From: a virus
Lineage: Duplodnaviria; Heunggongvirae; Uroviricota; Caudoviricetes
Length of the DNA: 64,000 nucleotides
IMG/VR virus record: IMGVR_UViG_3300049919_000267
Span: 38,379 to 102,378 of that record
Direction: 5' to 3' (one strand)
Shown: piece by piece, positions 38,600 to 63,255 of the stretch
Numbering within the stretch: the stretch's first letter is position 1
Layout of the letters: each line of letters opens with the position of its first letter
Translations under genes and position numbers: made by a program
The notes under the pieces: generated by a model
What the model was told of the DNA's origin: nothing
Seen by the model: only the letters and a program-made list of their open reading frames with translations
The model's database searches: none

Positions 38600-38601
38600 A
38601 G

Positions 38602-38991: not shown

Positions 38992-39008
38992 AGATAAATA
39001 TTTATTTG

Positions 39009-39080: not shown

Positions 39081-39159
39081 CTGTTTGAGACTGTTCGTAT
39101 ACATTTACCCAGATACTTACCATTAGTCTTTCAAATGTTCCTGGACACCTCTCCCATCG

Positions 39160-39232: not shown

Positions 39233-39679
39233 TTATATTTTTAAAAGTTTACAGATGTATCTGAAAGTGTTAATGTCTTTACAACTGCAAGTACATTTAA
39301 AATGTTCAGGAAGTGAATTAAAATAAAGTCCTTCTATTCTTGAAGGGTCTAATAAAATTATAGAAATAGATTTATCAGTAAAATTCCATCTTAAAAAATA
39401 GTTATTTTTGGTAAATCCCATACTTCCCCACATTAATCCTGCGTCATATCTTTTTTGAGGATCTTTTTCATATACTTCCCATCCCTCAGCTTCTATTTGT
39501 TCTTTAGTTAGATAGGGAACTCTTATAGCTTTCGATGGTATTTCCATTTCAGCTATTCTAACTCCAGCAGAATCAATTATACTGGGTTCAAAACTTCCTC
39601 CAGTCATTAACTCTTCACATTCATACCCAACTCTTATATCCTCTATTGAGGGTGTAAAGTATTTGTTTTGTTCTGACAT
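39233..39679 (-). CDS. Hypothetical protein (148 aa)
   Basis: ORF track. Nested between tRNA-Trp and tRNA-Pro. C-terminal …CTCSCKDINTFRYIC…. Confidence 0.55.
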   Translation of the reverse strand: MSEQNKYFTPSIEDIRVGYECEELMTGGSFEPSIIDSAGVRIAEMEIPSKAIRVPYLTKEQIEAEGWEVYEKDPQKRYDAGLMWGSMGFTKNNYFLRWNFTDKSISIILLDPSRIEGLYFNSLPEHFKCTCSCKDINTFRYICKLLKI

Positions 39680-39700
39680 ATTTAATTTTCTATTGGTTTG

Positions 39701-39774
39701 TATAGTAAGCAGGATTCGAACCTACGACCTCTTGCTCCCAAAGCAAGCATTCTACCGGACTGAACTATTACTAT
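39701..39774 (-). tRNA. tRNA-Pro (UGG)
   Basis: Perfect ATAGTAA / TTACTAT acceptor stem, anticodon stem CTTGC/GCAAG with loop UUUGGGA, T-arm GTAGG-TTCGAAT-CCTGC. Confidence 0.7.
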
Positions 39775-39926
39775 ATAAGCCATCAATTTTTAACTCTGTT
39801 CTTGACAGAACCAGGTACTTTCCACCTGGAGGAATTCTTTCTTGATGTAACCTTATTATGTAACAGGGAACGGTGCAACACTTTCATGGCTTCCTTCATA
39901 CGTCTTTATACGTTCTGCTACACTAG

Positions 39927-39998
39927 TTCCGGGGAAAGGGATCGAACCTCTGACCTAAAGCTTATGAGGCTTTCGAGCTACCGCTGCTCTACCCCGGA
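39927..39998 (-). tRNA. tRNA-Met (CAU), elongator-type (or tRNA-Ile2 if lysidinylated)
   Basis: Perfect TCCGGGG / CCCCGGA acceptor stem, D-arm GAGC…GCTC, anticodon stem AAAGC/GCTTT with loop CUCAUAA, T-arm AGAGG-TTCGATC-CCTTT. It lacks the three G-C anticodon-stem pairs of initiator tRNAs. Confidence 0.7.
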
Positions 39999-49621: not shown

Positions 49622-50059
49622 ATGACATCAGAAAACAAATTATATGCACTGGCAATAAGCATAGTTGCAAAAGCCTTTGAAGATAGATTAGATAAAGGTG
49701 GATTACCTTATTTTCTTCATTGTATGGAAGTTAGTAGAAAACAAATTACAATAAAAAGAAAAATAATAGGCATTCTTCATGATCTTATAGAAGATACTAA
49801 TTGGGATTTTGAAGATTTAAGTAAAGAAGGATTCCCTTTAAGTATTATTATCCCACTTAAATTGTTGACACATGATCCAACCACAAAGACATATGAAGAC
49901 TACATCCGGGACATATCAACAGATGAAGATGCAAGAGCAGTAAAATTAGCTGATCTGATTCATAACTCTAATATTACAAGACTAAAAGGACTTACAAAAT
50001 CAGATTTTGCTAAAATGGAACGATATCATAAAGCATACACATACTTATCAAAAACTTAA
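49622..50059 (+). CDS. HD-domain (p)ppGpp hydrolase, SpoT/Mesh1-like small alarmone hydrolase
   Basis: …LHCMEVSR…GILHDLIEDT…ARAVKLADLIHNSN… contains the HD …HDxxED… and …KLAD(R/L)LHN… motifs of RelA/SpoT-family hydrolase domains. 145 aa, single domain. Confidence 0.7.
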   Translation: MTSENKLYALAISIVAKAFEDRLDKGGLPYFLHCMEVSRKQITIKRKIIGILHDLIEDTNWDFEDLSKEGFPLSIIIPLKLLTHDPTTKTYEDYIRDISTDEDARAVKLADLIHNSNITRLKGLTKSDFAKMERYHKAYTYLSKT

Positions 50060-50068
50060 ACCTTAATT

Positions 50069-50362
50069 ATGCCAGTATATGAATTTGCAATAAAAAAAGA
50101 TGTACTAAACTCAGGAAAAACTATTCATACTCCTGTGTGTAGACTTAGAAGTAGATGGGGAATTAACCTATTTAATAATAAATGGGAAAGAATTACTAAT
50201 ATTTACAATGAGTTTATATTGATGGAATTAGATTTTACACCAGAATTATCTTATAAAGATTGTGAAATACATATTAAAGCATATCAAGAAGCTTTAACAA
50301 AAAAAATTGAGAATCAACTGCAAACTGTTGAATTTCATGATCTTGAAGAAAAAGAAATCTAA
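50069..50362 (+). CDS. Hypothetical protein (97 aa)
   Basis: ORF track. Confidence 0.5.
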   Translation: MPVYEFAIKKDVLNSGKTIHTPVCRLRSRWGINLFNNKWERITNIYNEFILMELDFTPELSYKDCEIHIKAYQEALTKKIENQLQTVEFHDLEEKEI

Positions 50363-50378
50363 TAAATTAAATTATGTC

Positions 50379-50585
50379 ATGACAAAAAAATCACCATCAC
50401 TCAAAAAAAAGGTAATAAAACTTTTTAATTTTGAAGCCTTTACTAGTAAATTTTATCCAAAGGAAAGAGTTATGTCAAAATCAGATCAACATGGATTAAC
50501 TGAAGTTTTTCCATTAAGAATTAAAAGTTACAGTAATAAACATTCACATGCACCATTTGGTTACAGATTCAAACCAGTTCACTAA
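50379..50585 (+). CDS. Small basic hypothetical protein (68 aa); start trimmed to the in-frame ATG after the upstream stop
   Basis: The ORF-track start 50307 overlaps the upstream gene. In-frame ATG at 50379 (MTKKSPSLKKK…). Confidence 0.4.
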   Translation: MTKKSPSLKKKVIKLFNFEAFTSKFYPKERVMSKSDQHGLTEVFPLRIKSYSNKHSHAPFGYRFKPVH

Positions 50586-50606
50586 TATCAATAAAACAAT
50601 AAAATT

Positions 50607-51014
50607 ATGAGCCAGAAAACTCCGGATACGAGAAATAAATTGGATAATAACAAAGGTATTAATACAAGACCAAAAAGAATTATTAAAAAGGGGGAATCTG
50701 TAAACCTTCAAACATTTAAAGAATCAATACACCCTTCTCATGTAAAAGCAAAGAAAGTTTCTAATGGTGAAATTTTTAAAAAAACTCATGGTTTCAGTAA
50801 AACTATGAAAAGATTAATGCAAAAGCATGAAGTTTATACTGTTGCAGAATACAGAGTCTTAATAAAAGCAAGAAAACTTACTGAAAAAAAGGCCAGACAA
50901 AAAAAACATTCTGATTCTGTTGCATACAAGAAACATAACAAAGATAACAAAGGAAAAACAAAAACAACAAAAAGAGGAAAAAACCAAAAAACAAAAACAC
51001 AATCAAAAAAATAA
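50607..51014 (+). CDS. Very Lys-rich basic protein (135 aa), histone-like/nucleic-acid-binding candidate
   Basis: …KKARQKKHSDSVAYKKHNKDNKGKTKTTKRGKNQKTKTQSKK. Confidence 0.55.
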   Translation: MSQKTPDTRNKLDNNKGINTRPKRIIKKGESVNLQTFKESIHPSHVKAKKVSNGEIFKKTHGFSKTMKRLMQKHEVYTVAEYRVLIKARKLTEKKARQKKHSDSVAYKKHNKDNKGKTKTTKRGKNQKTKTQSKK

Positions 51015-51016
51015 GA

Positions 51017-51211
51017 ATGAAGTTAAAAATTTATAAAAACATTAGAGATCCTGATAATCCGAGTAAAATTGTTAAACAAGAAACCTTAAGAATAATTAAT
51101 GTATCCAATGCTTTTTTAGGTATTGGAGAAGGAGGCTCAGTAAACAGAGCTGAATTTGAAAAACTTGCGAATGTTCTTGAACCTTATAATGATGGTATAG
51201 TTATAAGTTAA
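51017..51211 (+). CDS. Small hypothetical protein (64 aa)
   Basis: ORF track. 2-nt gap from the upstream gene. Confidence 0.45.
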   Translation: MKLKIYKNIRDPDNPSKIVKQETLRIINVSNAFLGIGEGGSVNRAEFEKLANVLEPYNDGIVIS

Positions 51212-51344
51212 ATTACTTTTTATGATTAAAAACAACATCTACTAACAGATGTTATTGCCTATGGGTGATCAGTTATTTGTAGTTGTCAATTTTAACTGGT
51301 GATTTAAACATGAAAAAGTCCTGGGGTTAATTCCCCAGGCATTA

Positions 51345-51416
51345 GGCCTGTTGGTAAAGTGGTTAATACGTTAGGTTTTCGACCTAAAATCATGAGTTCG
51401 AATCTCATACAGGCTA
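51345..51416 (+). tRNA. tRNA-Arg (UCG)
   Basis: GGCCTGT / ACAGGCT acceptor stem (G1·U72), anticodon stem TTAGG/CCTAA with loop UUUUCGA, T-arm ATGAG-TTCGAAT-CTCAT. Confidence 0.65.
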
Positions 51417-51433
51417 CTAATAAAATTAAAAAA

Positions 51434-51661
51434 ATGGAAATCAATAATGAAATTGTAGAAAAATATCTTAAAGATCCAAATAATTGTCCATTTTGTGAAA
51501 ACAAGAAAGGGGAAGGATTAAGAGCAGAAAATGATGATATTATCCCAGATAATTCAGCATTATGGAGAAATGTTTCTTGTAAAGATTGTGGCAGAGAATG
51601 GGTAGAAGAATTTGAGTTAACAACTATTAGTAATCTTACAGAATCTAAATTAATATTATGA
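51434..51661 (+). CDS. Small zinc-ribbon protein (75 aa); start trimmed out of tRNA-Arg
   Basis: ATG at 51434 (MEINNEIVEKYLKDPNNCPFCENKKGEG…CKDCGREW…), two CxxC pairs. The ORF-track start 51359 lies inside the tRNA. Confidence 0.5.
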   Translation: MEINNEIVEKYLKDPNNCPFCENKKGEGLRAENDDIIPDNSALWRNVSCKDCGREWVEEFELTTISNLTESKLIL

Positions 51662-51960
51662 CACATTTATTAATACCTATAAAGGATATTGAAGCTGAAA
51701 TAAAGCATAACAGAGAGTATCTGAATAGTTTACAAAGAAATAAGAGAAGTAATGATTCAGATAAACTTGAGCAAAAAACAGAATTTCTGGAAGATTTACT
51801 TACTGGTAAACAAATATCTCTTAATGAAAAAGATATAACTAGAATAAGCTTAAAAATATATCCTGAAAAAGAAGAAATAGATTACGATACAGGGATTATA
51901 TTTGATGGAAATAGAGATTATAGAATAGGTTATAAACAAGCATTAAAAGATTTATTATGA
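51658..51960 (+). CDS. Hypothetical protein (100 aa)
   Basis: ORF track. ATGA overlap with its neighbours. Confidence 0.5.
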   Translation: MTHLLIPIKDIEAEIKHNREYLNSLQRNKRSNDSDKLEQKTEFLEDLLTGKQISLNEKDITRISLKIYPEKEEIDYDTGIIFDGNRDYRIGYKQALKDLL

Positions 51961-52346
51961 AACAAACAATTTATATACCTACTAAAGTAGAAGATGAATT
52001 ACCTGAAGAAGATACATTTTATCTATGTAAAATAGGATTTAATGTTATTAAACAAATAGAGTTGTTTAAAGGAATTTTTATTAATGAAGAAGGTAATGAA
52101 AATATAGATGATGATACTGATATAAAAGATATTACTCCTTATAAATCATCAATTACTGAATGGTTTAAACCAACAGAAGCATATGTATTCACTCCTGAAG
52201 AACTTAAACAACTATTAGAAGAATATACTAATACAATTGTTGAGAATGCTAAAGTAGAATATAAAAAAGACTTATTAACAGGAGAAGTAGATAAAGAATC
52301 AATAACATCTCAATTACCTAAATTTTTAAATGAAATAGGAATATGA
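51957..52346 (+). CDS. Acidic hypothetical protein (129 aa)
   Basis: ORF track. 4-nt overlaps on both sides. Confidence 0.5.
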   Translation: MKQTIYIPTKVEDELPEEDTFYLCKIGFNVIKQIELFKGIFINEEGNENIDDDTDIKDITPYKSSITEWFKPTEAYVFTPEELKQLLEEYTNTIVENAKVEYKKDLLTGEVDKESITSQLPKFLNEIGI

Positions 52347-52582
52347 ATAAGCCAGAAGTTAAAGTAAAAAAATACTTAGATTACTTTGAAATAAAAAATT
52401 ATATTATAGAAAAATATAATTGTGATAAAGATGAGGATAAAACTTGGAATTACATGTGTAATAACCAAGAAGTTAGAAATGATAGTTATGGTTATATTCC
52501 AACAGAAAGTTGTATAAATGAATTTACAAAAGCAGTAAAAGAAGAATTTGGTGAAAATCCTAAAGTTTGGATTTCTTGGTAA
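52343..52582 (+). CDS. Small hypothetical protein (79 aa)
   Basis: ORF track. Confidence 0.45.
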   Translation: MNKPEVKVKKYLDYFEIKNYIIEKYNCDKDEDKTWNYMCNNQEVRNDSYGYIPTESCINEFTKAVKEEFGENPKVWISW

Positions 52583-52617
52583 ATATAACTTCTAGTAATT
52601 AACTTAAAAATAAAATT

Positions 52618-52776
52618 ATGAAACCTTATTTATTTTCATATACTCATGGAATAGGTGATGAATTTCCAATTGCTTATCAATTAGTTTACTCTGATAATGC
52701 TGAAAATGCTTTAATTTTATTAAAATTGAAAATGTATAATAAAATTTATGATATTGAAAATTGTACAATTGAATAA
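52618..52776 (+). CDS. Small ORF (52 aa), not in the ORF track
   Basis: Hand-read: MKPYLFSYTHGIGDEFPIAYQLVYSDNAENALILLKLKMYNKIYDIENCTIE*. Fills the gap between 52582 and 52779. Confidence 0.35.
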   Translation: MKPYLFSYTHGIGDEFPIAYQLVYSDNAENALILLKLKMYNKIYDIENCTIE

Positions 52777-52778
52777 TT

Positions 52779-53129
52779 ATGAAAGAAATAAAATTACATA
52801 ATAATACTTACTTATTTGTAGAAGTACCTTTTGATGCTACAGACTTTTATTACGATAGTTGGTTTACAAGATATGTTAATCATTCTAAAGGTAGTATTAA
52901 GTTTGATGTAAATACTGAAATAATCTCTACAACAAAAGATATTACAGAAGAACAAGCTGAAAGTATTGTTGAAAAAATTTTAGGTTTTGGTACTAAAAAT
53001 CAATATAAAGATTATAAATTAGATGTTAACTTTTCTATTTATTTTACACCCAAAGAATCTCTACAATCACTAATTCAAGCTAATGGATTAGATATTAATA
53101 AAAACTATTTAATACTTAAAAAGATATGA
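52779..53129 (+). CDS. Hypothetical protein (116 aa)
   Basis: ORF track. Confidence 0.5.
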   Translation: MKEIKLHNNTYLFVEVPFDATDFYYDSWFTRYVNHSKGSIKFDVNTEIISTTKDITEEQAESIVEKILGFGTKNQYKDYKLDVNFSIYFTPKESLQSLIQANGLDINKNYLILKKI

Positions 53130-53500
53130 CAATAGAACAAAAAAATATAGCTATAGCTGAAATGCTTGGATGGAGAAGGGGACACAGAGATTTTCCAAAA
53201 GAAAAAAGATGGAAAAATGATTGGTTTGATATAGATGAAATCAGAAGAACAAGAGATGGCTTAGAACCTCTTTTATTTCATTCAAATGCTAATTGGCAAT
53301 TTGAAGCTATAGATTGGATAGAAAAACAAAAGGTTTACATTAGAATTGAAAAACCTATTGGAGAATTATCTTCTTGGTTTGTAAATTTTGATAGTGAACA
53401 TAGTGAAATAAAAGAAGTTCAAGTATTTAATAAAAATAGAAAAGAAGCAATCTTTGAAGCATTATATCAATTTAGTCGATACATAAAAAATAATTTATGA
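53126..53500 (+). CDS. Hypothetical protein (124 aa)
   Basis: ORF track. ATGA overlap. Confidence 0.5.
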   Translation: MTIEQKNIAIAEMLGWRRGHRDFPKEKRWKNDWFDIDEIRRTRDGLEPLLFHSNANWQFEAIDWIEKQKVYIRIEKPIGELSSWFVNFDSEHSEIKEVQVFNKNRKEAIFEALYQFSRYIKNNL

Positions 53501-53895
53501 AACATCTATTTTTACCATATGAATTAGCTTTAATAGCTAAAGAGAAAGGATTTGATGAAGATTGTATAGCAATGTACTTTAAAACTTCTAAAAAACTATC
53601 AATAGATAGTAAAAATCTTTTAAGTAATAAAATTTGTAGTGGAATAACAGCTCCTCTATATCAACAAATAATTGATTGGTTGCTTGAAAAACATCAAATT
53701 AGTATAGAGCCACAAATTAATCCTGATTTAAGATGGATAATAGACTTTGTACCTAATATATTATTAACCCACGAAGGAAGTGGAAATTTTACATTTTTTA
53801 CAGGTTCTAAAAAATTAAATAATGATTATCAAGGTTTTAATACAAAATATGAAGCACTAAACAAAGCAATTGAAGAAGCTTTTAAACTAATATAA
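53497..53895 (+). CDS. Hypothetical protein (132 aa)
   Basis: ORF track. ATGA overlap. Confidence 0.5.
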   Translation: MKHLFLPYELALIAKEKGFDEDCIAMYFKTSKKLSIDSKNLLSNKICSGITAPLYQQIIDWLLEKHQISIEPQINPDLRWIIDFVPNILLTHEGSGNFTFFTGSKKLNNDYQGFNTKYEALNKAIEEAFKLI

Positions 53896-53897
53896 TT

Positions 53898-54314
53898 ATG
53901 AAACATTTTGCTAAATATCTTCCTGTAGAAGGAGAGATAAAAGAAGGTGATACAGTTCTTTTAGCTTCTTGTGATGAAATTTATACTTATGATAAGAAGG
54001 TAGTCACTCTTGTTCCCAGAGATAAAAAAGTAAAACTATTCCTCTGTAGTAGAGATATACAGGTAGGTGATAAAATAAGTATTGAAGGAGTTACTGAGTC
54101 TACTATATATGGAGGACAAAATTTAAGTAGTTCCATAAAAGAAGGTAAAGTTTTCAAAGTAATAGGAGAAATATCACCAGAAGCTACCTGGGTGAAAGAC
54201 GGAGATAAATTTGAAAAATCCGACATAAAAGTTGTTGGATATGGAGAAAATTGGAGTAAACATCAAAATCTTTCTAATATTAAAGTCAAAGGCCCATGTG
54301 GACATTTTCATTAA
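53898..54314 (+). CDS. Hypothetical protein (138 aa)
   Basis: ORF track. Confidence 0.5.
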   Translation: MKHFAKYLPVEGEIKEGDTVLLASCDEIYTYDKKVVTLVPRDKKVKLFLCSRDIQVGDKISIEGVTESTIYGGQNLSSSIKEGKVFKVIGEISPEATWVKDGDKFEKSDIKVVGYGENWSKHQNLSNIKVKGPCGHFH

Positions 54315-54324
54315 AATAATTTAT

Positions 54325-54666
54325 ATGAGTACTTTATTCAAGATTAAACTAACTCAAAAAATTGAAGTAAAAGAATTATTTGGTAGAAGTCTTGTATATA
54401 AAGGACATGAAGTATTAGCAGTACCAAAAGGAGTAATATTAAAAGTTTTAAAATCAGTTTCTAATGAAGGTGATATTATTATGAGAACAAATAATAATCA
54501 AAATCCATTTATTACTCTTTTTGAAAAAAATCCAATTGTTAGGACAATTCCATCAGATGAGTTTGTTTATTGGGGGTCATCAATACAAGAATATATATTT
54601 GAAGTACTTCCTTTTGCTTCAGCACATGATTATATAGATACAAAAAAGTTACCCTTTTCACTATAA
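54325..54666 (+). CDS. Hypothetical protein (about 113 aa); start trimmed to the ATG after the upstream stop
   Basis: The ORF-track start 54232 overlaps the upstream gene. In-frame ATG at 54325 (MSTLFKIKLTQ…). Confidence 0.45.
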   Translation: MSTLFKIKLTQKIEVKELFGRSLVYKGHEVLAVPKGVILKVLKSVSNEGDIIMRTNNNQNPFITLFEKNPIVRTIPSDEFVYWGSSIQEYIFEVLPFASAHDYIDTKKLPFSL

Positions 54667-54675
54667 AAAGGAAGT

Positions 54676-54762
54676 TTTCTATTGGCTGAGAGGATTAAGG
54701 CAAGGGGTATTGAATCCCCTGACTTCGGAAGAAGTCCAAGAGTTCGAATCTCTTATAGAAAA
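54676..54762 (+). tRNA. tRNA-Ser (UGA), type II with a long variable arm
   Basis: TTTCTAT / ATAGAAA acceptor stem, anticodon loop AUUGAAU, variable arm GACTTC-GGAA-GAAGTC, T-arm AAGAG-TTCGAAT-CTCTT. The D-arm is short with a G·U pair. Boundaries are about ±2 nt. Confidence 0.6.
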
Positions 54763-54798
54763 CAAGTTTTGCTGCATTTTCCTTAGAAAAATCAGAGG

Positions 54799-54872
54799 AA
54801 CATATTAGCTCAGTTGGTTAGAGCATCTGATTCATAATCGGAGGGTCATCAGTTCAAATCTGATATATGTAC
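54799..54872 (+). tRNA. tRNA-Met (CAU) with an A1·A72 acceptor-end mismatch
   Basis: D-arm GCTC…GAGC, anticodon stem TCTGA/TCGGA with loop UUCAUAA, T-arm ATCAG-TTCAAAT-CTGAT. Acceptor AACATAT / ATATGTA pairs at 6 of 7 positions, with position 1:72 unpaired. Confidence 0.6.
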
Positions 54873-54905
54873 CGAATTATATTTATCCACTAACAAAAAA
54901 AGTTT

Positions 54906-55277
54906 ATGTCAAAAAAAACTCCATTAGTAACAGCCTCTAAAGCAAAAGCTGTAAAAATTTCTACTGCTAAAAAAACAGTACCAACAGTATTAAACTCAAA
55001 AAAATCCTTTGTAAATCCTAAATTTCCTGTAAAGAGAGTTTCAAGGACAACAATGCTCCGTACAATTGCAGACACAAAAGGTAAGATTTTTACTTCAGTA
55101 CATATTGGTAAAGATGGTCAACCTCATCTCATTAATGGCATCCGGTACAAAAAACAGGATCATGATATGGGATATATTCAGGTATATTCTACAAAAGCCA
55201 GAGAAATGAGATTAATTAATCCTCAGACTCTAACTGATCTGACTTTTAAAGGTGTGCATTACAAAGCCAGAAAATAA
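54906..55277 (+). CDS. Basic hypothetical protein (123 aa)
   Basis: ORF track. Lys/Arg-rich. Confidence 0.5.
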   Translation: MSKKTPLVTASKAKAVKISTAKKTVPTVLNSKKSFVNPKFPVKRVSRTTMLRTIADTKGKIFTSVHIGKDGQPHLINGIRYKKQDHDMGYIQVYSTKAREMRLINPQTLTDLTFKGVHYKARK

Positions 55278-55307
55278 TTGTTAGCCTTCATCAAAGAAAA
55301 GGCCCAG

Positions 55308-55379
55308 ATTCCTGTGGCTTAATTGGTAGAGCATCCCCCTGAAAGGGGAAGGTTGTAGGTTCGAGTCCTACCAGGCATC
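55308..55379 (+). tRNA. tRNA-Phe-like (GAA) with stem mismatches
   Basis: D-arm GCTT…GAGC, anticodon loop CUGAAAG (GAA) on a CCCC/GGGG stem with a C·A mismatch, T-arm GTAGG-TTCGAGT-CCTAC. The acceptor stem has one T·C mismatch. An alternative fold gives a 6-nt anticodon loop. Confidence 0.45.
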
Positions 55380-55414
55380 CTGAATTATTTTTAATATAAA
55401 ACTTCAAATTCAAA

Positions 55415-56062
55415 ATGGAAAAAAATGTAAATGCTCCTGTTAAAAAAGCAACAGGTAACAAAACAACAGAAATTATTATTGGTTCAGCAGCAGTTAAATT
55501 ACAAAATGCTGTAAAATCTGCTTATTCAGCACTGGAAGAAGTAAAAAACCTGGATGTAAAAGCACAGGAAGGAACTCTCAAAGTAAGTGATTTGGAAGAT
55601 AAGATTGGTGGATTAAAACAGGATCTTGAAAACAAGACAGCACAGAACAAAATTGATCTTCAACAAGCTTATGATGCTGATAAAAAAGCATTTGTTGATA
55701 ATTGGTTAAAAGAAAACAATGTAGTAGTTGTTGATGATGCTACTTACAAAAATCTGCAAAATGAACTTGCCAGCATGGAAGTTAAAATGGAAAGTACAGT
55801 TAGAACTGAAGTGGGTAAAGCTGTAGGTATAGAAAAAGCAAATTCTGCCAATGCTTTGAAAATTGCTCAATTGGAAGCTGAAAAGAAAGAAGCTTCTAAT
55901 GTAGCTGAAATCAGTCAGTTAAAAGCTCAAATCATGTTCTTGGAGAAAACTTCAAAATCATGGGAAGATGCTTTAACAGCTGAAAGAGCTGCTGGCATTG
56001 AAAGAGCTAAGGCTTCTTCTATCAACACTCTGAATGTTGGTGGAACCACACAAGGACGTTAA
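55415..56062 (+). CDS. Coiled-coil protein (215 aa)
   Basis: ORF track. Ala/Lys/Glu-rich heptad-like sequence. Followed by two strong hairpins. Confidence 0.55.
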   Translation: MEKNVNAPVKKATGNKTTEIIIGSAAVKLQNAVKSAYSALEEVKNLDVKAQEGTLKVSDLEDKIGGLKQDLENKTAQNKIDLQQAYDADKKAFVDNWLKENNVVVVDDATYKNLQNELASMEVKMESTVRTEVGKAVGIEKANSANALKIAQLEAEKKEASNVAEISQLKAQIMFLEKTSKSWEDALTAERAAGIERAKASSINTLNVGGTTQGR

Positions 56063-56172
56063 TAAAAATCGGTTAGACTTTCTCTTCCAAGAAAAGTCAA
56101 GAAGCCTTCATCTCCCCAGAAGAAAGTGATTTCTTCTGGGGAAGGTGGAGGACATCTTATTAATAAAAAGTA

Positions 56173-56209
56173 AAAACCCCTAAGAATTAATTTACTTAGG
56201 GGTTTTTCT
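56173..56209 (+). terminator. Rho-independent terminator (bidirectional-looking)
   Basis: AAAAACCCCTAAG-loop-CTTAGGGGTTTTT. Preceded at 56114..56141 by a perfect 12-bp hairpin CCCCAGAAGAAA-GTGA-TTTCTTCTGGGG. Confidence 0.65.
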
Positions 56210-56232
56210 TAAGTTTTAAATACTAATTTAAT

Positions 56233-56306
56233 GAATTGGTAGCTCAGTTGAATAGAGCATCAGCCTTCTAAGCTGAGGGTCATAGGTTTGAATCCTATCC
56301 AGTTCA
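56233..56306 (+). tRNA. tRNA-Arg (UCU)
   Basis: GAATTGG / CCAGTTC acceptor stem, D-arm GCTC…GAGC, anticodon stem TCAGC/GCTGA with loop CUUCUAA, T-arm ATAGG-TTTGAAT-CCTAT. Confidence 0.7.
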
Positions 56307-56321
56307 CAAAATAAATAAATC

Positions 56322-56924
56322 ATGTTAGAAATACAAAACTATGAATCTCTTAATTTTACAGATCATCAAATGGAGTTCATGTCTTATGCTAAAAATCATT
56401 ATGTTAAACAGTTAAAAGAAGCACAAGTACCTGAAAATGAATCTACCATTGCTATATTAAGAACTATTGATGAAATAAATACTGAAAATTTAGAAAAAAA
56501 GAAAGATGAAATGATTCCATCATGTAAAAAAGGTTGTGCACATTGTTGCTACATACAAGTTGGAATGACTTTAAGAGAAGCAAATCTTATTAAAGAGTAT
56601 GTAGATACGTTTCATATTCCAGTAGATAAAGAGAAACTTAAAATACAAGCCCAAATTGAAAATGAAAAAGAATATCTTATATCTCCAAATAGGAGATGTG
56701 TATTCTTAGGACAAAATAATCTTTGTACTATTTATGAAGTAAGGCCTTCAGCCTGTAGAAATTACTTTGTGTTTAATCCTAAAGAAGATTGCGATACATT
56801 TAATGATAAAACTACTGGAAAAACTCTGGTAAATTTTGACTTAGAATCAGTTGCACCTATCATGGCTCTTATGAGCATATCTCCAACAAATACATTACCT
56901 AGACAATTATTAAAAATATTATAA
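56322..56924 (+). CDS. YkgJ-family (UPF0153, CxxCxxCC zinc/iron-chelating domain) protein (200 aa)
   Basis: …SCKKGCAHCCY… followed by …RRCVFLGQNNLCTIYEVRPSACRNYF… (family signature C-x-FL…C-x-IY-x-x-RP-x-x-CR-x-[FY]). Confidence 0.6.
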   Translation: MLEIQNYESLNFTDHQMEFMSYAKNHYVKQLKEAQVPENESTIAILRTIDEINTENLEKKKDEMIPSCKKGCAHCCYIQVGMTLREANLIKEYVDTFHIPVDKEKLKIQAQIENEKEYLISPNRRCVFLGQNNLCTIYEVRPSACRNYFVFNPKEDCDTFNDKTTGKTLVNFDLESVAPIMALMSISPTNTLPRQLLKIL

Positions 56925-56941
56925 TACAGTCAGGAATGGAA

Positions 56942-57014
56942 GGGGATATAGCTCAGTTGGTAGAGCATTACACTGATAATGTAAAGGTCAATAGTTCAAA
57001 TCTATTTGTCCCCA
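56942..57014 (+). tRNA. tRNA-Ile (GAU)
   Basis: GGGGATA / TGTCCCC acceptor stem, D-arm GCTC…GAGC, anticodon stem TTACA/TGTAA with loop CUGAUAA, T-arm AATAG-TTCAAAT-CTATT. Confidence 0.75.
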
Positions 57015-57187
57015 CGAATAAGTTAGCTTTGCGCTAAAAGGGGTAGTCTGGTTGGAATCCAGCTTGAAGTGAATCTTCTACCCTTTTTAAATTTTTGTTA
57101 GTTTTGTATTAGTAAAATTTACAGGTAAGGAGATATAAGTAATTGTGTCTATGAACTATTTGTAAATTTTATTTTAAATTTATTAAT

Positions 57188-57406
57188 ATGCTATTTAAAA
57201 TAAAAAAGATCCCTTTTACTGGAGTATTTCATAAAAAAAGCTTTTATGTTAAGGGCAAAAAAGATATTATCTACAAGCTTTATATAAAAAATGATCAAAA
57301 TTATACAAGAACTAGGGAAAACTCAGAAGACCTTTCTGTATTTGATTATCCAGAGTACTACATAAAAGAGAGAATAAAAGCATGTGATTGGATATTAGTA
57401 CACTAA
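57188..57406 (+). CDS. Small hypothetical protein (72 aa)
   Basis: ORF track. Confidence 0.45.
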   Translation: MLFKIKKIPFTGVFHKKSFYVKGKKDIIYKLYIKNDQNYTRTRENSEDLSVFDYPEYYIKERIKACDWILVH

Positions 57407-57420
57407 TTCAATTTAATTTT

Positions 57421-57738
57421 ATGGAAAAAAAGAAACAAGAAGAAAATTCTATTTTTAGTTTTAAAATCAAGTTTGTAAAAAAGAGAAATTATAATAAAGA
57501 TAAAATTGAATTAATTCATGATACTAATGGACATAATAAGTTTTATCATATGAATGTTGAAAGAAAAGAAAGTTCCAGGCCAAGAGTTGTAATTAATTAT
57601 GGAAGAATAAGAAGTGAAATGGTAACTAGCGGAACAACAGAAATAAAAGAATTTAAAAATTTAGATGAATGTTATAAATTTGTAAATAAAAAACTTGAGG
57701 AAAAGACTAATAAAGGGTATAAAAGAATTGAAAATTAA
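57421..57738 (+). CDS. Basic hypothetical protein (about 105 aa); start trimmed
   Basis: The ORF-track start 57388 overlaps the upstream gene. ATG at 57421 (MEKKKQEENS…). Confidence 0.45.
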   Translation: MEKKKQEENSIFSFKIKFVKKRNYNKDKIELIHDTNGHNKFYHMNVERKESSRPRVVINYGRIRSEMVTSGTTEIKEFKNLDECYKFVNKKLEEKTNKGYKRIEN

Positions 57739-57752
57739 TAAAAAAAATCATT

Positions 57753-58226
57753 ATGTTCAAATTCAAAACAAAAAAAGTAACTATTGGAGATTTTGATCCT
57801 GATGATCCATATGAATGGACTTTATTAATCAAACCTCAAATACAAGATGTAACTAACTTTATTCATATCAGAAGATGTTGGAATGTAACAGAAGTTGCAA
57901 AAGATGAAGAAAATGGAATAGATGGAGTATTTAAAGAAAATGTATATGAAATTATTAAAGGTTTTATAAAAGAAGAAAATTATGTAGTTCAACATAGCAT
58001 AAGCCTAAGAAATCCAAGTATTGAATTTGCAAAATCTAAATATGTTGAAATTCTTAAAGATTACATAGAAGACGGTTGGGAAAAAGATTGGAATATGTAT
58101 GAAAATGAGGCTCCTGGTATTCCAAAAACCCCTAGTTATAGAAAATTTAATACACAAGTTTCAACTAAACAACTTAGTCTGTTAAAAAACATGACAAGTA
58201 ATTTAATAAATAAATCACAACCTTAA
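57753..58226 (+). CDS. Hypothetical protein (157 aa)
   Basis: ORF track. Confidence 0.5.
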   Translation: MFKFKTKKVTIGDFDPDDPYEWTLLIKPQIQDVTNFIHIRRCWNVTEVAKDEENGIDGVFKENVYEIIKGFIKEENYVVQHSISLRNPSIEFAKSKYVEILKDYIEDGWEKDWNMYENEAPGIPKTPSYRKFNTQVSTKQLSLLKNMTSNLINKSQP

Positions 58227-58238
58227 TTTAAAAATCTC

Positions 58239-58463
58239 ATGAAATCAAAAGCACAAAAAAGAAAAGAGGCTCTTGAAAGACAAGAAGAACATAAACTTCT
58301 TTCAGCATCTAAAAAGATTCTTAAATTAGATCTTAAACTAGGTGGTGAAAAAGGAGCTAAAAGAGAAAGATCTAAATTAGCTGTAGAGCTTGTAAAAGTT
58401 CCTGAAGTTAAAGAAATCTCAGATCAGAGTAAAAAACACTATCAAAAATCTAAAAAATTATAA
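58239..58463 (+). CDS. Small Lys-rich protein (74 aa)
   Basis: ORF track. Confidence 0.45.
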   Translation: MKSKAQKRKEALERQEEHKLLSASKKILKLDLKLGGEKGAKRERSKLAVELVKVPEVKEISDQSKKHYQKSKKL

Positions 58464-58465
58464 TT

Positions 58466-59260
58466 ATGGCAGAAGTAAAAATGGATCTTGCTGAACTAGA
58501 AGATATTAAAAATCAAATAGTTAAGCAAAAAAAGATAGTTTCTGAAAAAGAAGAAGTTATCAAACAAAAAGAAAAAGAACTTGCTGAAGCTTATGCTGAT
58601 AAAAGAACTGTACAAATTACTAAAACCAGTAAACCTGTACCAAGTTGGGATTTTCATGCAAATTCAATTAATAGTAGAATAGAACATTCAGATTTTTCTT
58701 ATGGAAATGAATATGTTGGTAAAATATTTTCTTTTATAAAACAAAAAGATTATATGAGACTTTCTGAAAATTCTCTTTATGAAAATATCAAAGAGACTAT
58801 TAATCAACTTGTTTTTAATATAAGTGCAAGAGGAGATATGCAAAGAAAAAATGTTCCTATAACTTATGAAGAAATTGTAACAAAAGAGTTTATAAACTTT
58901 GATGATGTACTTGGAGATCTTAGAGAAAAAGCTGAAGTAAGTTTTATTAATGAAATCAATTCTTATAAAACTAAAATTCATACTTTAGAAGGGACAGTAA
59001 GTGATCTTCAGAATAAAATTACTGATACTACTAAAGTTGCAAATAAAAAGATTGATGAAATTATCGAAAGTTATGAAACTAAATTACAAGATAATTCAGT
59101 AAAAGCTAGAAAAGAATATGAAATTCTTTCAAAAGCTTTTAGTGATTACAAAGAAGACAAAGATACCAGAAACCTTCAAAAACAGATTTTTGATCTTAAA
59201 ACAGAACTTGAAGAAGAAAGACAAAAAAAGTGGTATCAAAAAATAATAAAAAATAAATAA
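58466..59260 (+). CDS. Coiled-coil protein (264 aa)
   Basis: ORF track. Glu/Lys-rich heptads. Confidence 0.55.
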   Translation: MAEVKMDLAELEDIKNQIVKQKKIVSEKEEVIKQKEKELAEAYADKRTVQITKTSKPVPSWDFHANSINSRIEHSDFSYGNEYVGKIFSFIKQKDYMRLSENSLYENIKETINQLVFNISARGDMQRKNVPITYEEIVTKEFINFDDVLGDLREKAEVSFINEINSYKTKIHTLEGTVSDLQNKITDTTKVANKKIDEIIESYETKLQDNSVKARKEYEILSKAFSDYKEDKDTRNLQKQIFDLKTELEEERQKKWYQKIIKNK

Positions 59261-59270
59261 TAAAAACAAA

Positions 59271-59414
59271 ATGGCAAAATTAAAATTATCAGAGATCAAA
59301 TTTGGAATGATTCTTAAAATGAAAACAGATGCGTTTGCAGCTTATGAATATGCTAAAGGAGATCCTGTACAAGTTGTATACCTTCAAGGAAATAACATCC
59401 AGTGTAATGATTAA
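59271..59414 (+). CDS. Small ORF (47 aa), not in the ORF track
   Basis: Hand-read: MAKLKLSEIKFGMILKMKTDAFAAYEYAKGDPVQVVYLQGNNIQCND*. Confidence 0.35.
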   Translation: MAKLKLSEIKFGMILKMKTDAFAAYEYAKGDPVQVVYLQGNNIQCND

Positions 59415-59424
59415 AAACTAAACC

Positions 59425-59811
59425 ATGAAATTAAATCAAACTCAAACAGAAGCTCTTATTGATGACTTTATTGAAAAAAATAATGATAAAGTAAAAAAAG
59501 AGTTAGAAGTTATTAAAAAATCTCCTGAATTTAAGTCACAAGTTAATAAACTTCAAAAAGCTTTAAAAAGTATTGACCCAGCAGCTTTGAAATATTTAAA
59601 ATCTGATAGTTTTGTAATCCCAGGTATTCAACATATTGAAAACTACTTGATTCAGACCTATCAATTTACATCTAAAACAAAAACTAAAAAAATTGATAAT
59701 TGGGGGAATACAAGAACAAAATACAAACAAGCCCTTACTTTAGCTTCTATTGAAAAAACTTCTATAGAAGAGTTAATAAAAGTTCTTGAAGATGTTAAGA
59801 TTTCTAATTAA
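59425..59811 (+). CDS. Hypothetical protein (128 aa)
   Basis: ORF track. Confidence 0.5.
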   Translation: MKLNQTQTEALIDDFIEKNNDKVKKELEVIKKSPEFKSQVNKLQKALKSIDPAALKYLKSDSFVIPGIQHIENYLIQTYQFTSKTKTKKIDNWGNTRTKYKQALTLASIEKTSIEELIKVLEDVKISN

Positions 59812-59831
59812 ATACTTTTAACTTTTAAAAT

Positions 59832-60232
59832 GGGTCTGACAGGCATTTGACAGCAATGGATTGGAATTATGGGTATGCAGGGAGAATGATTCTATACTTC
59901 CTTGATAAATGTGAATCAAATCTAGATGTAGAAGTATCTAACATCACCGTAGGTGCAGAAGGAAACATTGATAGCTTATTAGCTTCTTTGTCTTATTCAG
60001 TTGAGTCTGAGCTTGCTCTGGCTTAATTCACCCCCAGAACTCTATGGGTATAAATGAGAACTTTTTCTTTTGGTATATTCTTCAAATAAGAATCTACTCT
60101 GAATATTAACCTGGCTTAACAGTAAATTAGCTAAAGGCCTTTGGAGCAGTAGGACTGCTATCCTAAGCATATAAGTCAACCATAATTACTTTACAATGTA
60201 TGGACAAGGGTTCGACTCCCTTCAGATCCACC
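59832..60232 (+). ncRNA. ssrA: tmRNA (ssrA-like transfer-messenger RNA), apparently phage-encoded
   Basis: The 5' GGGTCTG pairs with the 3' CAGATCC-A-CC. The 3' end GGACAAGGGTTCGACTCCCTTCAGATCCACC closely mirrors the E. coli tmRNA 3' end (GGACGCGGGTTCAACTCCCGCCAGCTCCACCA). An internal reading frame ends …SYSVESELALA-TAA at 60024-60026, with candidate resume codons GCA at 59955 or GCT at 59982. Length about 401 nt. Confidence 0.6.
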
Positions 60233-60307
60233 TTTAAAGCACAAGAGTTACGTCCTCTCTCTTGAGGTAAGAATAGATTCTTATTCTTATCTGAACAAAG
60301 AGGTTAG

Positions 60308-60391
60308 GGGCAAGTGGTGGAATTGGCAGACACACAAACTTCGATGTTTGTTCTTAACAGAGTATAGGTTCGAATCCTATTTTGTCCACCA
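60308..60391 (+). tRNA. Type II (long variable arm, Leu/Ser-like) tRNA with an aberrant anticodon loop. Isotype unresolved; CCA encoded.
   Basis: D-arm TGGTGGAATTGGCAGACAC (Leu-like), T-arm ATAGG-TTCGAAT-CCTAT, acceptor GGGCAAG / TTTGTCC (2 G·U), terminal ACCA. The anticodon region ACAAAC-TTCGAT-GTTTGT folds as a 5-bp stem with either a 6-nt loop (UUCGAU) or an 8-nt loop (CUUCGAUG), never a canonical 7-nt loop. Confidence 0.5.
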
Positions 60392-60534
60392 GGGTTATTT
60401 CTTACACTTTCCCGTAAAAAAAGTGTCAAGTGGTGTAGGTAACTAGATAAAAAAAATCTGGTAGCCCCAAACCCCCGGAGAAACAAACTTCTCTGGGGTT
60501 TTTTATAAATCTAATACAAAACAAAACAGCAATT

Positions 60535-60828
60535 ATGAAAAGGATTAAATATTTTTTTAACAGTGCATTAATTATGGCTGGAATCTATATAATATTATCA
60601 ATACTTTTTCTTATTCTACAGTGGTATTCAAATATTGAAGCTAATATTGAATTTTATTTAAAGTATGACACTTATATACAACTTTTTAAGATTATTATAG
60701 ATATACTTGAAATAATTATTAGAGGTTGTTTTTGGTTATCTGTTGCATTATTTATGATTTACGAACTAGATAAATATGATGAAAAAGGAAATTTAATTGA
60801 TATTGAAACCAAAAAAGAAAACATATGA
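60535..60828 (+). CDS. Small membrane protein (97 aa, 2-3 TM)
   Basis: ORF track. Hydrophobic helices. Confidence 0.5.
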   Translation: MKRIKYFFNSALIMAGIYIILSILFLILQWYSNIEANIEFYLKYDTYIQLFKIIIDILEIIIRGCFWLSVALFMIYELDKYDEKGNLIDIETKKENI

Positions 60829-61520
60829 GACAAATGGAATTCAGTTCTGATGAACAAGTAAAAAAATCTTATGAGTTTCTTAATAGTTTGAATCAACCAG
60901 CTTGTGAAGGATGTAATCATGGTATAAGGATGTGCTATAATACTCCTTGTATGGGAACAGTAGAAGATTTTGAAAAACTTATAGAAGCTGGCTATGCAGG
61001 ATCTCTTATGTTAGATCATTGGTGTGGTGGACATATGAATGGTAATCCTTTTAAAGAAGATGTACTTTATTTAGCACCAGCTATAGAAAACAAACAAAAA
61101 CAAGCTGCCCCATTTATAAGATCTGGAAAGTGTGCATTATTAATTAATAATAAATGCAGTCTTCATGATTTAGGACTAAAACCTATACAAGGAAAATCTG
61201 TTTGTTGTAAACTTGAAAGAGTTTATAAAGATGAAAATGGGGAAAATAAAGCAATTGAAGAAAGATTTCTTATTCTTCATACATGGAATACTCAGAAAGG
61301 ACTGGATCTTATTGAAAAATGGAAAAAAGAAGTTAATTTTAAAACAGAAAGTGGAGATGAAGAAATAGATAAAAAAGATCCTTTTCTTTTTCTAAGTCTT
61401 CTTGTAGAACAAATACAAAAATTTGAAGAAATTGAAAAAAAAGAAAAAACAGGTGAAATGCCACTGTACACTCCACTAACAGAGCCACGAAAAATAATCG
61501 AATACACAAAACCTTATTAA
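60825..61520 (+). CDS. YkgJ-family-like Cys-rich protein (231 aa), paralog of 56322..56924
   Basis: …PACEGCNHGIRMCYNTPC… and …GKCALLINNKCSLHDLGLKP… align with …RRCVFLGQNNLCTIYEVRPSAC… of the first copy. Acidic C-terminal tail. Confidence 0.5.
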   Translation: MRQMEFSSDEQVKKSYEFLNSLNQPACEGCNHGIRMCYNTPCMGTVEDFEKLIEAGYAGSLMLDHWCGGHMNGNPFKEDVLYLAPAIENKQKQAAPFIRSGKCALLINNKCSLHDLGLKPIQGKSVCCKLERVYKDENGENKAIEERFLILHTWNTQKGLDLIEKWKKEVNFKTESGDEEIDKKDPFLFLSLLVEQIQKFEEIEKKEKTGEMPLYTPLTEPRKIIEYTKPY

Positions 61521-62412: not shown

Positions 62413-63255
62413 ATGGGACTCAAAACAAAATTAATTTTAATTGCAGTTGGATTAGTATTATTACTAAGTTCACTAGGTATAGGATGTGAAAGAATTGATG
62501 CCGGAAGTGTTGGGATTAAAGTAAACATGACTGGTGGAACACAAGGTATTGCAAAGACAGAATATGTAACTGGTTGGTGTTTTTATTGGAGATTAGCACA
62601 AAAAGTGTATGAATTCCCAACTTATCAACAACATAAAGAATATGATCCATATGAAGTACCTGCAAAAGGAGGAACTATGTTTACTGTTCATCCTACATTT
62701 AATTATAATTTAAATGCTGGTGAAGTAGGTAATATGTTTCAAAGATACCGATTAGGACTCTCAACATTAGAAAATGGTTTTATTAAGAATTCTATGACTA
62801 CAGCTATTAGGGAAGTAACTAATACTTTTACAGCAGATAGTATTTTAAATAATCAAGCCGGGTATGATGCAGCTATTTATAATAAATTAAATAAAGAATT
62901 AGCACCTTATTTTCAAGTAACTCAGTTTACTGCTAATCTTATTCCTGATCCAAACTTAAAAGCTTCTATTATTAATAAAGCAAAAGCTGTACAGGATGCT
63001 CAAGCTGCAATAGCTCAACAATCTGTAACAAGAGCTAATGCTGAAATTGATATTATTAATGCTAAAAAAGATTCTGTTGTAACTATGACAGCAGCTCTAG
63101 CTGAAGCTAATTCTATGCGAGCTAAAAATGAAGCTTTAAAAGAATCTCCACAATTGGTAGAATACACTAAAGCTTTAAAATGGAATGGAGTATTACCAAG
63201 TACTATAATGGGAGGAAGTGGGGCTGTTCCTTTCTTTAACATAAACAAACAATAA
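62413..63255 (+). CDS. SPFH/band-7 domain lipoprotein (280 aa), second SPFH paralog in the window
   Basis: Lipobox-like …LSSLGIGC…, then an SPFH-like core and a C-terminal Ala/Gln-rich coiled coil (…AKAVQDAQAAIAQQSVTRANAEIDIINAKKD…) typical of HflK/C-type proteins. Confidence 0.55.
   Translation: MGLKTKLILIAVGLVLLLSSLGIGCERIDAGSVGIKVNMTGGTQGIAKTEYVTGWCFYWRLAQKVYEFPTYQQHKEYDPYEVPAKGGTMFTVHPTFNYNLNAGEVGNMFQRYRLGLSTLENGFIKNSMTTAIREVTNTFTADSILNNQAGYDAAIYNKLNKELAPYFQVTQFTANLIPDPNLKASIINKAKAVQDAQAAIAQQSVTRANAEIDIINAKKDSVVTMTAALAEANSMRAKNEALKESPQLVEYTKALKWNGVLPSTIMGGSGAVPFFNINKQ

Follow-up and report, generated by a model that had tools for sequence, protein, structure and literature searches.

A translation-related gene set with a predicted small alarmone hydrolase, tRNAs and a tmRNA in a syntenic arm of a crAss-related phage

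The 64,000-nucleotide (nt) stretch of phage DNA analysed here, hereafter the window, covers positions 38,379 to 102,378 of the IMG/VR record IMGVR_UViG_3300049919_000267, and the present work concerns its part from 49622 to 61520, in which a small alarmone hydrolase (SAH), seven transfer RNA (tRNA)-type genes, a transfer-messenger RNA (tmRNA) and a number of small conserved proteins are encoded on the plus strand. The best explanation of the whole is that these genes make phage protein synthesis less dependent on the host and less vulnerable to it, and we consider this probable. The hydrolase, of the Aph1/PbcSpo type, would strip the 3′-pyrophosphate from (p)ppApp, perhaps also from tRNAs whose CCA end has been pyrophosphorylated, and would thereby neutralise the toxic small alarmone synthetases (toxSAS) that serve bacteria as toxins or as effectors of abortive infection. 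The tRNAs for Glu (UUC), Arg (UCU) and Ile (GAU), the CAU tRNA and nine further tRNAs encoded leftward would decode the dominant A/U-rich codons of the phage, and could also substitute for scarce or damaged host tRNAs. The tmRNA, charged with alanine through its G3·U70 pair and working with SmpB, assumed to be supplied by the host, would rescue stalled ribosomes and add a tag of about 32 amino acids (aa). As to three further tRNA-type genes with irregular anticodon loops, the Ser-like one would be selected for and the other two would possibly be decaying copies. Phage tRNAs, tmRNAs and SAHs are each already documented; their co-occurrence here extends this known biology to a crAss-related clade with genomes of about 70-130 kb.

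Genome setting and RNA gene content

The window has a G+C content of about 30%. Up to about 43 kb its genes lie on the minus strand and include those for the terminase, the portal, the major head protein and giant virion proteins; at about 43.2 kb the genes flip to the plus strand, and the GC skew also switches near 43 kb. Because of this gene switch, the stretch under study is taken to be the rightward, presumably early/middle, arm. The nearest matches of the major head protein were crAss-like phages and the Leptolyngbya phage Lbo-JY46, at 23-25% identity, and when 49-62 kb was compared by megablast with 50,697 phage records, no DNA-level match was obtained. The phage, of about 102 kb, is distantly related to crAss-like phages and appears to have no close sequenced relative among the phage records searched. 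The habitat of its clade is probably freshwater, judging from one sample identifier.

The 215-aa protein encoded at 55415-56062 served to anchor the collection of relatives from IMG/VR, JGI, ENA and Logan assemblies. Ten contigs, whose versions of this protein are 41-79% identical to the one in the window, cover the arm, and gene presence was scored by tblastn within the DNA fetched for these 10 relatives (contigs and loci carry L numbers). An independent metagenome contig (L005) was identical in sequence across 52435-58306, so the odd anticodon loops at 54676 and 55308 described below are not assembly errors; a scan of metagenome contigs yielded nothing beyond the contig already known from IMG/VR.

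In the whole window, ARAGORN called 17 RNA genes, namely nine regular tRNAs on the minus strand and, on the plus strand, seven tRNA-type genes with a tmRNA, the latter eight all within 51345-60391. Rfam supported six of the seven plus-strand tRNAs (41-78 bits, gathering threshold 29), the exception being the gene at 54676. With the open reading frame (ORF) of the HD protein at 49622-50059, these results place the RNA genes and the hydrolase where the initial annotation of this DNA had located them. Its count of seven tRNAs holds for tRNA-type genes; several of its labels do not hold, and three of the seven genes have anticodon loops that are not 7 nt long.

A small alarmone hydrolase of the Aph1 type

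The protein encoded at 49622-50059 (plus strand) is 145 aa long with a single HD domain, and its PDB and PHROG matches identify it as an SAH of the Aph1/PbcSpo type. In the PDB search it matched 7smg_A, a '(p)ppApp hydrolase', over nearly its full length (residues 1-143 of 145 against 1-142 of 149; E=1.7e-23; 38% identity), whereas Rel/RelA hydrolase domains and Mesh1 gave far weaker matches, with Aph1 ahead by ~17 orders of magnitude. The protein also matched phrog_990 (E=2.4e-38), and homologues were found in 252 phage records, with gp220 of phage PVP-SE1 at 41-42% identity. The HDLIED and KLADLIHN motifs described earlier are both present. In an alignment of the window protein with Aph1, PVP-SE1 gp220, the Lbo-JY46 homologue and four clade orthologues, the catalytic residues H33, H53-D54, E57-D58, D111 and N115 are all invariant, as are the Aph1 specificity residues D24, R119 (R120 here) and Y134 (Y135 here).

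The structure 7SMG is that of Aph1, a Bacteroides caccae prophage enzyme that hydrolyses (p)ppApp and not (p)ppGpp; its (p)ppApp-specificity signature consists of D24, R96, D116, R119, K133 and Y134, and a D24R/R119A double mutant acquires ppGpp activity (PMC10083569). The SAH of the Salmonella phage PVP-SE1 neutralised all five toxSAS tested, CapRel, FaRel2 and PhRel2 among them (PMC7229694). Later work showed that toxins of the CapRel/FaRel2/PhRel2 type attach a pyrophosphate to the CCA end of tRNA, and that the pyrophosphorylated tRNA (tRNA-PP) can be restored by two further SAHs, MESH1 and ATfaRel (bioRxiv 10.1101/2021.04.30.441581). Given the full-length match to Aph1, the invariant D24 and R119 and the homology to the PVP-SE1 SAH, counter-defence against alarmone-synthetase toxins appears to be the best-supported function of the protein, with (p)ppApp and possibly tRNA-PP as predicted substrates. 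An Aph1-type hydrolase beside the tRNA genes of a lytic-type phage would fit the defeat of such toxins, including those that block CCA ends.

The initial annotation had instead proposed a (p)ppGpp hydrolase that shuts off the stringent response, tRNAs that serve codons rare in the host, and one takeover module made of both, a model that we consider quite unlikely. It draws on the membership of the HD protein in the RelA/SpoT hydrolase superfamily, as seen in the weaker Rel/RelA and Mesh1 matches, on several phage records that label the homologues guanosine-3',5'-bis(diphosphate) pyrophosphohydrolase, and on the modest ppGpp activity of some Aph homologues (PMC10083569). However, the (p)ppApp-specific Aph1 is by a wide margin the best match and the closest solved relative, and D24 and R119, both of which had to be mutated for Aph1 to gain ppGpp activity (PMC10083569), are invariant; moreover, the hydrolase is accessory in the clade, and the supposed Arg (UCG) tRNA is a Glu (UUC) tRNA in a phage that hardly uses CGA. 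Suppression of the stringent response thus seems less well supported than counter-defence.

Several findings weigh against counter-defence as the role of this protein, or against the broader reading of the arm. The match to Pfam HD_4 (PF13328), which had been suggested as a check, stayed below threshold (14.1 bits against a cut-off of 27.2; E=0.038). In the alignment, D116 of Aph1 is replaced by N and K133 by R, and R96 aligns with D, an R lying one position earlier; only three of the six signature residues are therefore identical, so the substrate preference is a prediction. Furthermore, within the DNA fetched, the hydrolase was found in only five of the 10 relatives, which makes it an accessory gene and not part of an obligate module. 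Finally, since a recognisable function is lacking for the majority of the region's proteins, it is chiefly the RNA genes that support the notion of a 'module'.

In its overall build the window protein resembles Aph1 and PVP-SE1 gp220, all being phage-encoded single HD domains of ~145-150 aa that align over their full length and share the catalytic residues together with D24, R119 and Y134. Unlike Aph1, it does not keep D116, K133 and R96, it has beside it neither a gene for a (p)ppApp synthetase toxin nor one for Tis1-like immunity, and it is found in a lytic-type crAss-related genome near tRNA genes.

Regular tRNAs and codon usage

Four of the plus-strand genes, each called by ARAGORN and supported by Rfam, form a cloverleaf whose anticodon loop is 7 nt long and has U33 and purine 37: tRNA-Glu(UUC) at 51345-51417 (67.4 bits), the CAU tRNA at 54799-54873 (57.3 bits), tRNA-Arg(UCU) at 56233-56307 (67.8 bits) and tRNA-Ile(GAU) at 56942-57015 (77.6 bits). 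The Arg (UCU) and Ile (GAU) tRNAs are thus upheld as first described, whereas the gene at 51345-51417, which had been labelled Arg (UCG), carries the 7-nt loop UUUUCGA, and this loop in the standard register gives the anticodon UUC of a tRNA-Glu. The syntenic Glu tRNA of 11 relatives has the loop UUUUCGA in nine cases and UUUUCAA in two, and some of these tRNAs have a typical Glu-type D arm. Every relative that spans the position of tRNA-Arg(UCU), 10 in all, has this gene.

Codon counts were made over 71 window ORFs and are given per 1000 codons. GAA is used at 48-72, AGA at 27 (relative synonymous codon usage ~5), AUU at 41-47 and AUA at 21-37; CGA and UCG are used at 0.2-1.3 and 0.2-1.1, respectively. 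The regular tRNAs therefore decode the phage's commonest codons (GAA, AGA, AUY), which fits codon supply as judged from phage usage alone.

Nine additional regular tRNAs, for Cys, Phe, Asp, His, Asn, Gln, Trp and Pro and with the anticodon CAU, are clustered at 38248-39998 on the minus strand, just downstream of the terminase gene; all nine were called by ARAGORN and Rfam, and all have 7-nt loops. This cluster was not included in the initial annotation of the arm and is part of the same tRNA complement. In addition, a perfect 7-bp G+C-rich palindrome (CCTGGGG TTAATT CCCCAGG) was noted at 51320-51339 of the window, 5 nt upstream of tRNA-Glu.

The tRNA sets of T4, T5 and mycobacteriophages have been read as codon supply and/or as escape from tRNA-targeting defence (PMC10264068, PMC12409363). 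The present set resembles them in that multiple tRNAs are interspersed with small early genes and are biased to A/U-ending codons and to U34-type anticodons, as seen in Glu-UUC and Arg-UCU, in Gln-UUG of the leftward cluster and in Lys-UUU of the relatives. It differs from them in that three of the seven arm genes have 6- or 8-nt anticodon loops, and not substitutions within a 7-nt loop, and in that the relatives bear type I tRNAs with Ser or Leu anticodons as well as suppressor-type anticodons. These comprise suppressor-type tRNAs (UUA with A33; CUA) and short type I Ser (UGA) and Leu (UAG, GAG, UAA) tRNAs, which were noted at L010 9162-9232, L019 3257-3330, L009 9367-9437, L016 9045-9119, L168 9256-9328 and 9881-9950, and L166 9030-9103. 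Here the body type of the tRNA does not match its anticodon, a hint that some members of the clade may use recoding or decode in a non-standard way.

A core tmRNA with a long, protein-conserved tag

The tmRNA reported in the initial annotation was confirmed at 59832-60232 (plus strand) as a one-piece tmRNA by ARAGORN and by Rfam (RF00023, 57.8 bits against a gathering threshold of 47, over the full model 1-374); Rfam found no riboswitch at this locus. Its acceptor pairs 5′ GGGUCUG with 3′ CAGAUCC, which gives G3·U70, followed by ACC, and a T arm is present. The tmRNA was found in all 10 relatives covering the position. Relatives share the acceptor pattern and have Rfam scores of 50 to 82 bits, with nine relatives above the threshold, and ARAGORN calls were obtained in L018, L019 and L167.

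ARAGORN's own proposal for the tag is 23 aa long. Since the frame is conserved further upstream in eight close relatives, we placed the resume codon, GUA, at 59928, which gives a proposed 32-aa tag, VEVSNITVGAEGNIDSLLASLSYSVESELALA, with the stop codon at 60024-60026. The tag is 32-35 aa long in the eight close relatives, 27 aa in L019, 33 aa in L167 and 18 aa in L018 (the last according to ARAGORN), and its consensus is (V/A)E(V/K/L)SN(I/V/Y)(T/S)VG..GN(I/V)D(S/A/T)LL.SL(S/A)Y...A(L/F/Y)A. Differences among the tags are distributed over the three codon positions as 178/99/263, with an excess at the third, and 183 of the 329 differing codon pairs are synonymous, with switches among AGC, AGU and UCU for Ser and among UUA, CUU and CUG for Leu. 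These results demonstrate that the tag reading frame is conserved at the protein level and is under coding selection. In five of nine sequences, UAGAU or UAAAU precedes the resume codon (GUA, or GCA in L016), which resembles the E. coli context, in which UAGUC stands directly before the resume codon GCA.

The core status of this tmRNA together with the long protein-conserved tag suggests that the tag itself is functional. tmRNAs occur in ~2.3% of sequenced phages (PMC9004378) and are also known from huge phages (PMC7162821). Like these, the present RNA is a complete ssrA-type molecule with a tRNA-like domain, G3·U70 and a tag frame closed by a stop codon, and it lies among early genes and tRNAs. 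In contrast to known phage tmRNAs, it is one-piece with no riboswitch found by Rfam, and its tag of ~32 aa (27-35 in the clade) shows protein-level conservation and closes with A(L/F/Y)A where ALAA is usual; and unlike the tmRNAs of huge phages, it belongs to the core gene set of a clade whose genomes measure ~70-130 kb. What is new about it is confined to the length and conservation of the tag and to the gene's core status in the clade. Downstream, an intrinsic terminator at 60473-60498 (plus strand; 10 pairs, six of them G-C, then T6), the best terminator-like site within 43-62.6 kb, closes the unit formed by the tmRNA and the odd tRNA-type gene at 60308-60391.

tRNA-type genes with 6- or 8-nt anticodon loops

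Three plus-strand genes have an anticodon loop of irregular length, and judging from these loops they cannot be ordinary decoders. At 54676-54763 lies an 88-nt Ser-like type II gene with the 8-nt loop UAUUGAAU (UGA central), called by ARAGORN alone; the Rfam search was blank there even at E<=0.1. At 55308-55380 lies a 73-nt Phe-like type I gene with the 6-nt loop CUGAAA and a U3·C70 mismatch (ARAGORN '(ga)'; Rfam 56 bits), and at 60308-60391 an 84-nt Leu-like type II gene whose loop is 6 nt (UUCGAU) or 8 nt (ARAGORN '(tcga)'; Rfam 41.4 bits). The initial annotation had called these loci a Ser (UGA) tRNA, a Phe-like tRNA and an odd type II tRNA, respectively.

The acceptor stem of the gene at 54676 starts with U1-A72, its D arm is of the Ser type, its variable arm is long and its anticodon stem has 5 bp; its loop can be counted as 8 nt, or as 6 nt if the terminal U·U is taken as a pair. 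Syntenic Ser-like homologues in L009, L011 and L019 have the loops CAAAAA, GCUCAAAU and AUUGAGGU, none of them 7 nt long. Within this four-member family, 16 of 26 stem pairs show compensatory double changes, and 99% of the stem cells are paired, against 34-52% when the partners are slid. In other viral contigs sampled for the same D-arm motif, only two of 107 Ser-type tRNAs have loops that are not 7 nt. The co-varying stems and the rarity of odd loops elsewhere make the family look functional despite its irregular loop.

The loop CUGAAA at 55308 is the loop CUGAAAA of the regular tRNA-Phe (38324-38399) minus one A. The gene at 60308 has the acceptor wobbles G3·U70 and G7·U66, a 4-bp T stem, an encoded CCA and the lowest Rfam score; its slot is occupied in relatives by Leu (UAG/AAG) tRNAs, with odd loops there also in L010 and L018. 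As a side observation, its G3·U70 together with the A73 discriminator corresponds to the alanine identity set, whereas relatives have G3-C70 or C3-G70.

Two explanations of the odd loops were weighed. All three genes might be pseudogenes, that is, duplicates broken by homopolymer slippage and tolerated beside regular copies, an explanation that is well worth entertaining, although we rate it somewhat below an even chance for the three together. The missing A in the Phe-like loop is in line with it, as is AUUGAA, the Gln loop AUUUGAA minus one U: the locus L001 8824, which carries AUUGAA, has an L013 orthologue with the regular loop GUUUGAA. The 3:70 mismatch of the gene at 55308, the two acceptor G·U pairs, short T stem and low score of that at 60308, and the occurrence of non-7-nt loops at a level of 6% across tRNA-rich phage loci in general point in the same direction. 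Slippage does not readily account for the Ser-like genes, of which four of four have non-7-nt loops on strongly co-varying stems while Ser-type tRNAs elsewhere seldom do; it is also at odds with the 6-nt loops, which keep U at loop position 2 in 11 of 13 cases and a purine at position 6 in 12 of 13, a regularity that ARAGORN scoring may favour.

Alternatively, the odd-loop RNAs might be functional as non-ordinary molecules, namely as nuclease-resistant decoders, as decoys for defence systems, or as frameshifting or quadruplet-reading tRNAs, which we offer tentatively and with considerable doubt. The structural conservation of the Ser-like family speaks for this, as does the recurrence of 6- or 8-nt loops in the clade, in 11 of 81 distinct tRNAs, and anticodon-loop changes have been proposed as a way for phage tRNAs to evade anticodon nucleases (PMC10264068). 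On the other hand, the Ser-like family has four members only, and its loops are so unlike one another that no shared target is evident; no literature on altered anticodon-loop sizes in phage tRNAs was found, and no frameshift sites were identified in the phage genes, no search for such sites having been made. Triplet decoding with an 8-nt loop is known from yeast mitochondrial tRNA-Thr1, and classical +1 suppressors such as sufJ also have 8-nt loops. The genes described here share with these the 8-nt loop on an otherwise intact cloverleaf, but the loop sequence varies between orthologues, 6-nt loops occur too, and there is no sign of frameshifting or reassignment.

Taken gene by gene, the Ser-like gene may be maintained by selection and the genes at 55308 and 60308 may be decaying copies, for both of which an origin as slippage pseudogenes is plausible. 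That the clade keeps non-7-nt-loop, tRNA-shaped RNAs under purifying selection as a functional class, with the Ser-like family as the clearest case, and that the tmRNA tag destines rescued proteins for a phage-specific fate and not for ordinary degradation, is a bolder proposal in which we place low confidence; if it were true, the odd-loop RNAs would be nuclease-hardened decoders, programmed recoding tRNAs or decoys that occupy tRNA-targeting immunity. The Ser-like family with its 8- or 6-nt loops could be relevant to the ways in which phages escape tRNA-targeting immunity or interfere with decoding, and the non-7-nt-loop tRNA family and the long conserved tmRNA tag are both of experimental interest.

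The CAU tRNA is of the elongator type

The tRNA at 54799-54873 (plus strand) had been described as a Met tRNA with an initiator-like A1·A72 mismatch. The mismatch is seen in the ARAGORN structure; no other initiator hallmark is. The anticodon stem (UCUGA/UCGGA) has one G-C pair at 29-31:39-41 and not three, and the D stem (GCUC/GAGC) has C11:G24 and not A11:U24. The clade has 1:72 mismatches in Ile, Arg, Gln, Glu and suppressor-type tRNAs as well, and they are common in its elongator-type tRNAs. The gene is about as similar to the Met (CAU) tRNAs of the clade (0.77) as to the Ile (UAU) tRNAs (0.74). Its sequence features indicate an elongator-type tRNA, which would be a Met tRNA or, if lysidine-modified, an AUA-reading Ile2 tRNA, and not an initiator hybrid. 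A possible orthology to the Ile (UAU) tRNAs of relatives was considered and was not upheld, as the gene is equally similar to the Met (CAU) tRNAs. The other CAU tRNA of the window, at 39926-39998 on the minus strand, does show one hallmark of bacterial initiators, A11:U24, and its U1-A72 pair is weak.

A conserved syntenic arm with accessory insertions

The gene order of the arm is shared by the 10 covering relatives. It starts with small conserved proteins, followed by tRNA-Glu(UUC) and a variable tRNA slot, and continues with the basic 123-aa protein, the 215-aa protein and tRNA-Arg(UCU); in about half of the relatives a YkgJ-like gene and tRNA-Ile(GAU) come next, and these genes are followed by the tmRNA, then in most a Leu-type tRNA, and usually a Cys-rich protein. 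The tmRNA, the two basic proteins (50607-51014 and 54906-55277) and the 215-aa protein are present in 10 of 10 relatives. The YkgJ-like gene occurs in the identical five relatives as the hydrolase (L001, L009, L011, L013 and L016), a co-occurrence that could reflect a functional link or merely a shared sub-lineage.

Between tRNA-Glu and the next tRNA lies a phage-specific block of 3.3 kb (51359-54666, plus strand) with about 10 small ORFs, eight of which match none of the 10 relatives, the last two having one weak, non-syntenic match each; no significant Pfam match was obtained in the block. Judged by this distribution, it is probably a hypervariable accessory insertion. The region is therefore a lineage-conserved syntenic arm with accessory insertions, and not a discrete or mobile island. 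The initial annotation's coherent island does not stand: its hydrolase and YkgJ-like gene were found in only half of the 10 relatives, the phage-specific block lies within it, and most of its proteins lack a recognisable function. What persists of that proposal is a translation-related gene set (tRNAs, tmRNA and RelA/SpoT-type hydrolase) that the lineage keeps in one syntenic arm.

Upstream of the hydrolase position, the arm of L009, L011, L012, L013, L167 and L168 carries in all six a PP2C-type phosphatase and a ~540-aa protein, and in most of them a CTP_transf_like nucleotidyltransferase; in Lbo-JY46, PncB lies nearby. No counterpart of the relatives' nucleotidyltransferase, phosphatase and ~540-aa protein was seen in 43-49.6 kb of the window.

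Protein-coding genes of the arm

The paired YkgJ-family proteins proposed earlier were reduced to one. The protein encoded at 56322-56924 (plus strand) is a YkgJ-type Cys-cluster protein (PF03692, E=2.8e-9, 38 bits against a cut-off of 23). The protein encoded at 60825-61520 (plus strand), in contrast, has no detectable relation to PF03692: as a YkgJ candidate it was rejected, with no Pfam hit at E<=10 and a probability of 0.25% in hhalign against YkgJ orthologues. It is a conserved Cys-rich protein of 231 aa with 27 homologues, none of which has a Pfam domain, and its invariant residues are C27, C30, C37, C42, C103, C111, H114, C127 and C128. An AlphaFold2 (AF2) model of high confidence (predicted local distance difference test score 90.3) gave no fold match in Foldseek searches of PDB and BFVD.

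Two of the clade core genes encode Lys-rich basic proteins, one of 135 aa at 50607-51014, with no Pfam, PHROG or PDB match, and one of 123 aa at 54906-55277, with no family match and no PDB match. A conserved 97-aa protein, encoded at 50069-50362 and found in 10 of 10 relatives by tblastn, has no significant Pfam match. The other recognisable domains of the region are a WGR domain, in a protein encoded at 57388-57738 (PF05406, E=7.2e-15; eight of 10 relatives), and an SPFH/Band 7 domain at 62413-63255. The four genes whose products are of 135, 123 and 97 aa or carry the WGR domain are all on the plus strand.

The anchor of the comparison, a core gene at 55415-56062 (plus strand) with 70 homologues, encodes a coiled-coil protein of 215 aa, which gave coiled-coil noise only in the PDB search. 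It is followed by two strong hairpins at 56104-56210 (plus strand; -63 kcal/mol, z=-7.2), the second of them terminator-like, and G+C-rich hairpins were also observed at the equivalent position in relatives. Sub-threshold Rfam hits to His_leader and trpB at 56108-56215 were rejected and are read as artefacts of these terminator hairpins. Homologues of the 215-aa protein (loci L018-L043) lie inside the tRNA arrays of many phages, including contigs of 200-480 kb, and their IMG/VR loci have up to 23 tRNAs within 10 kb.

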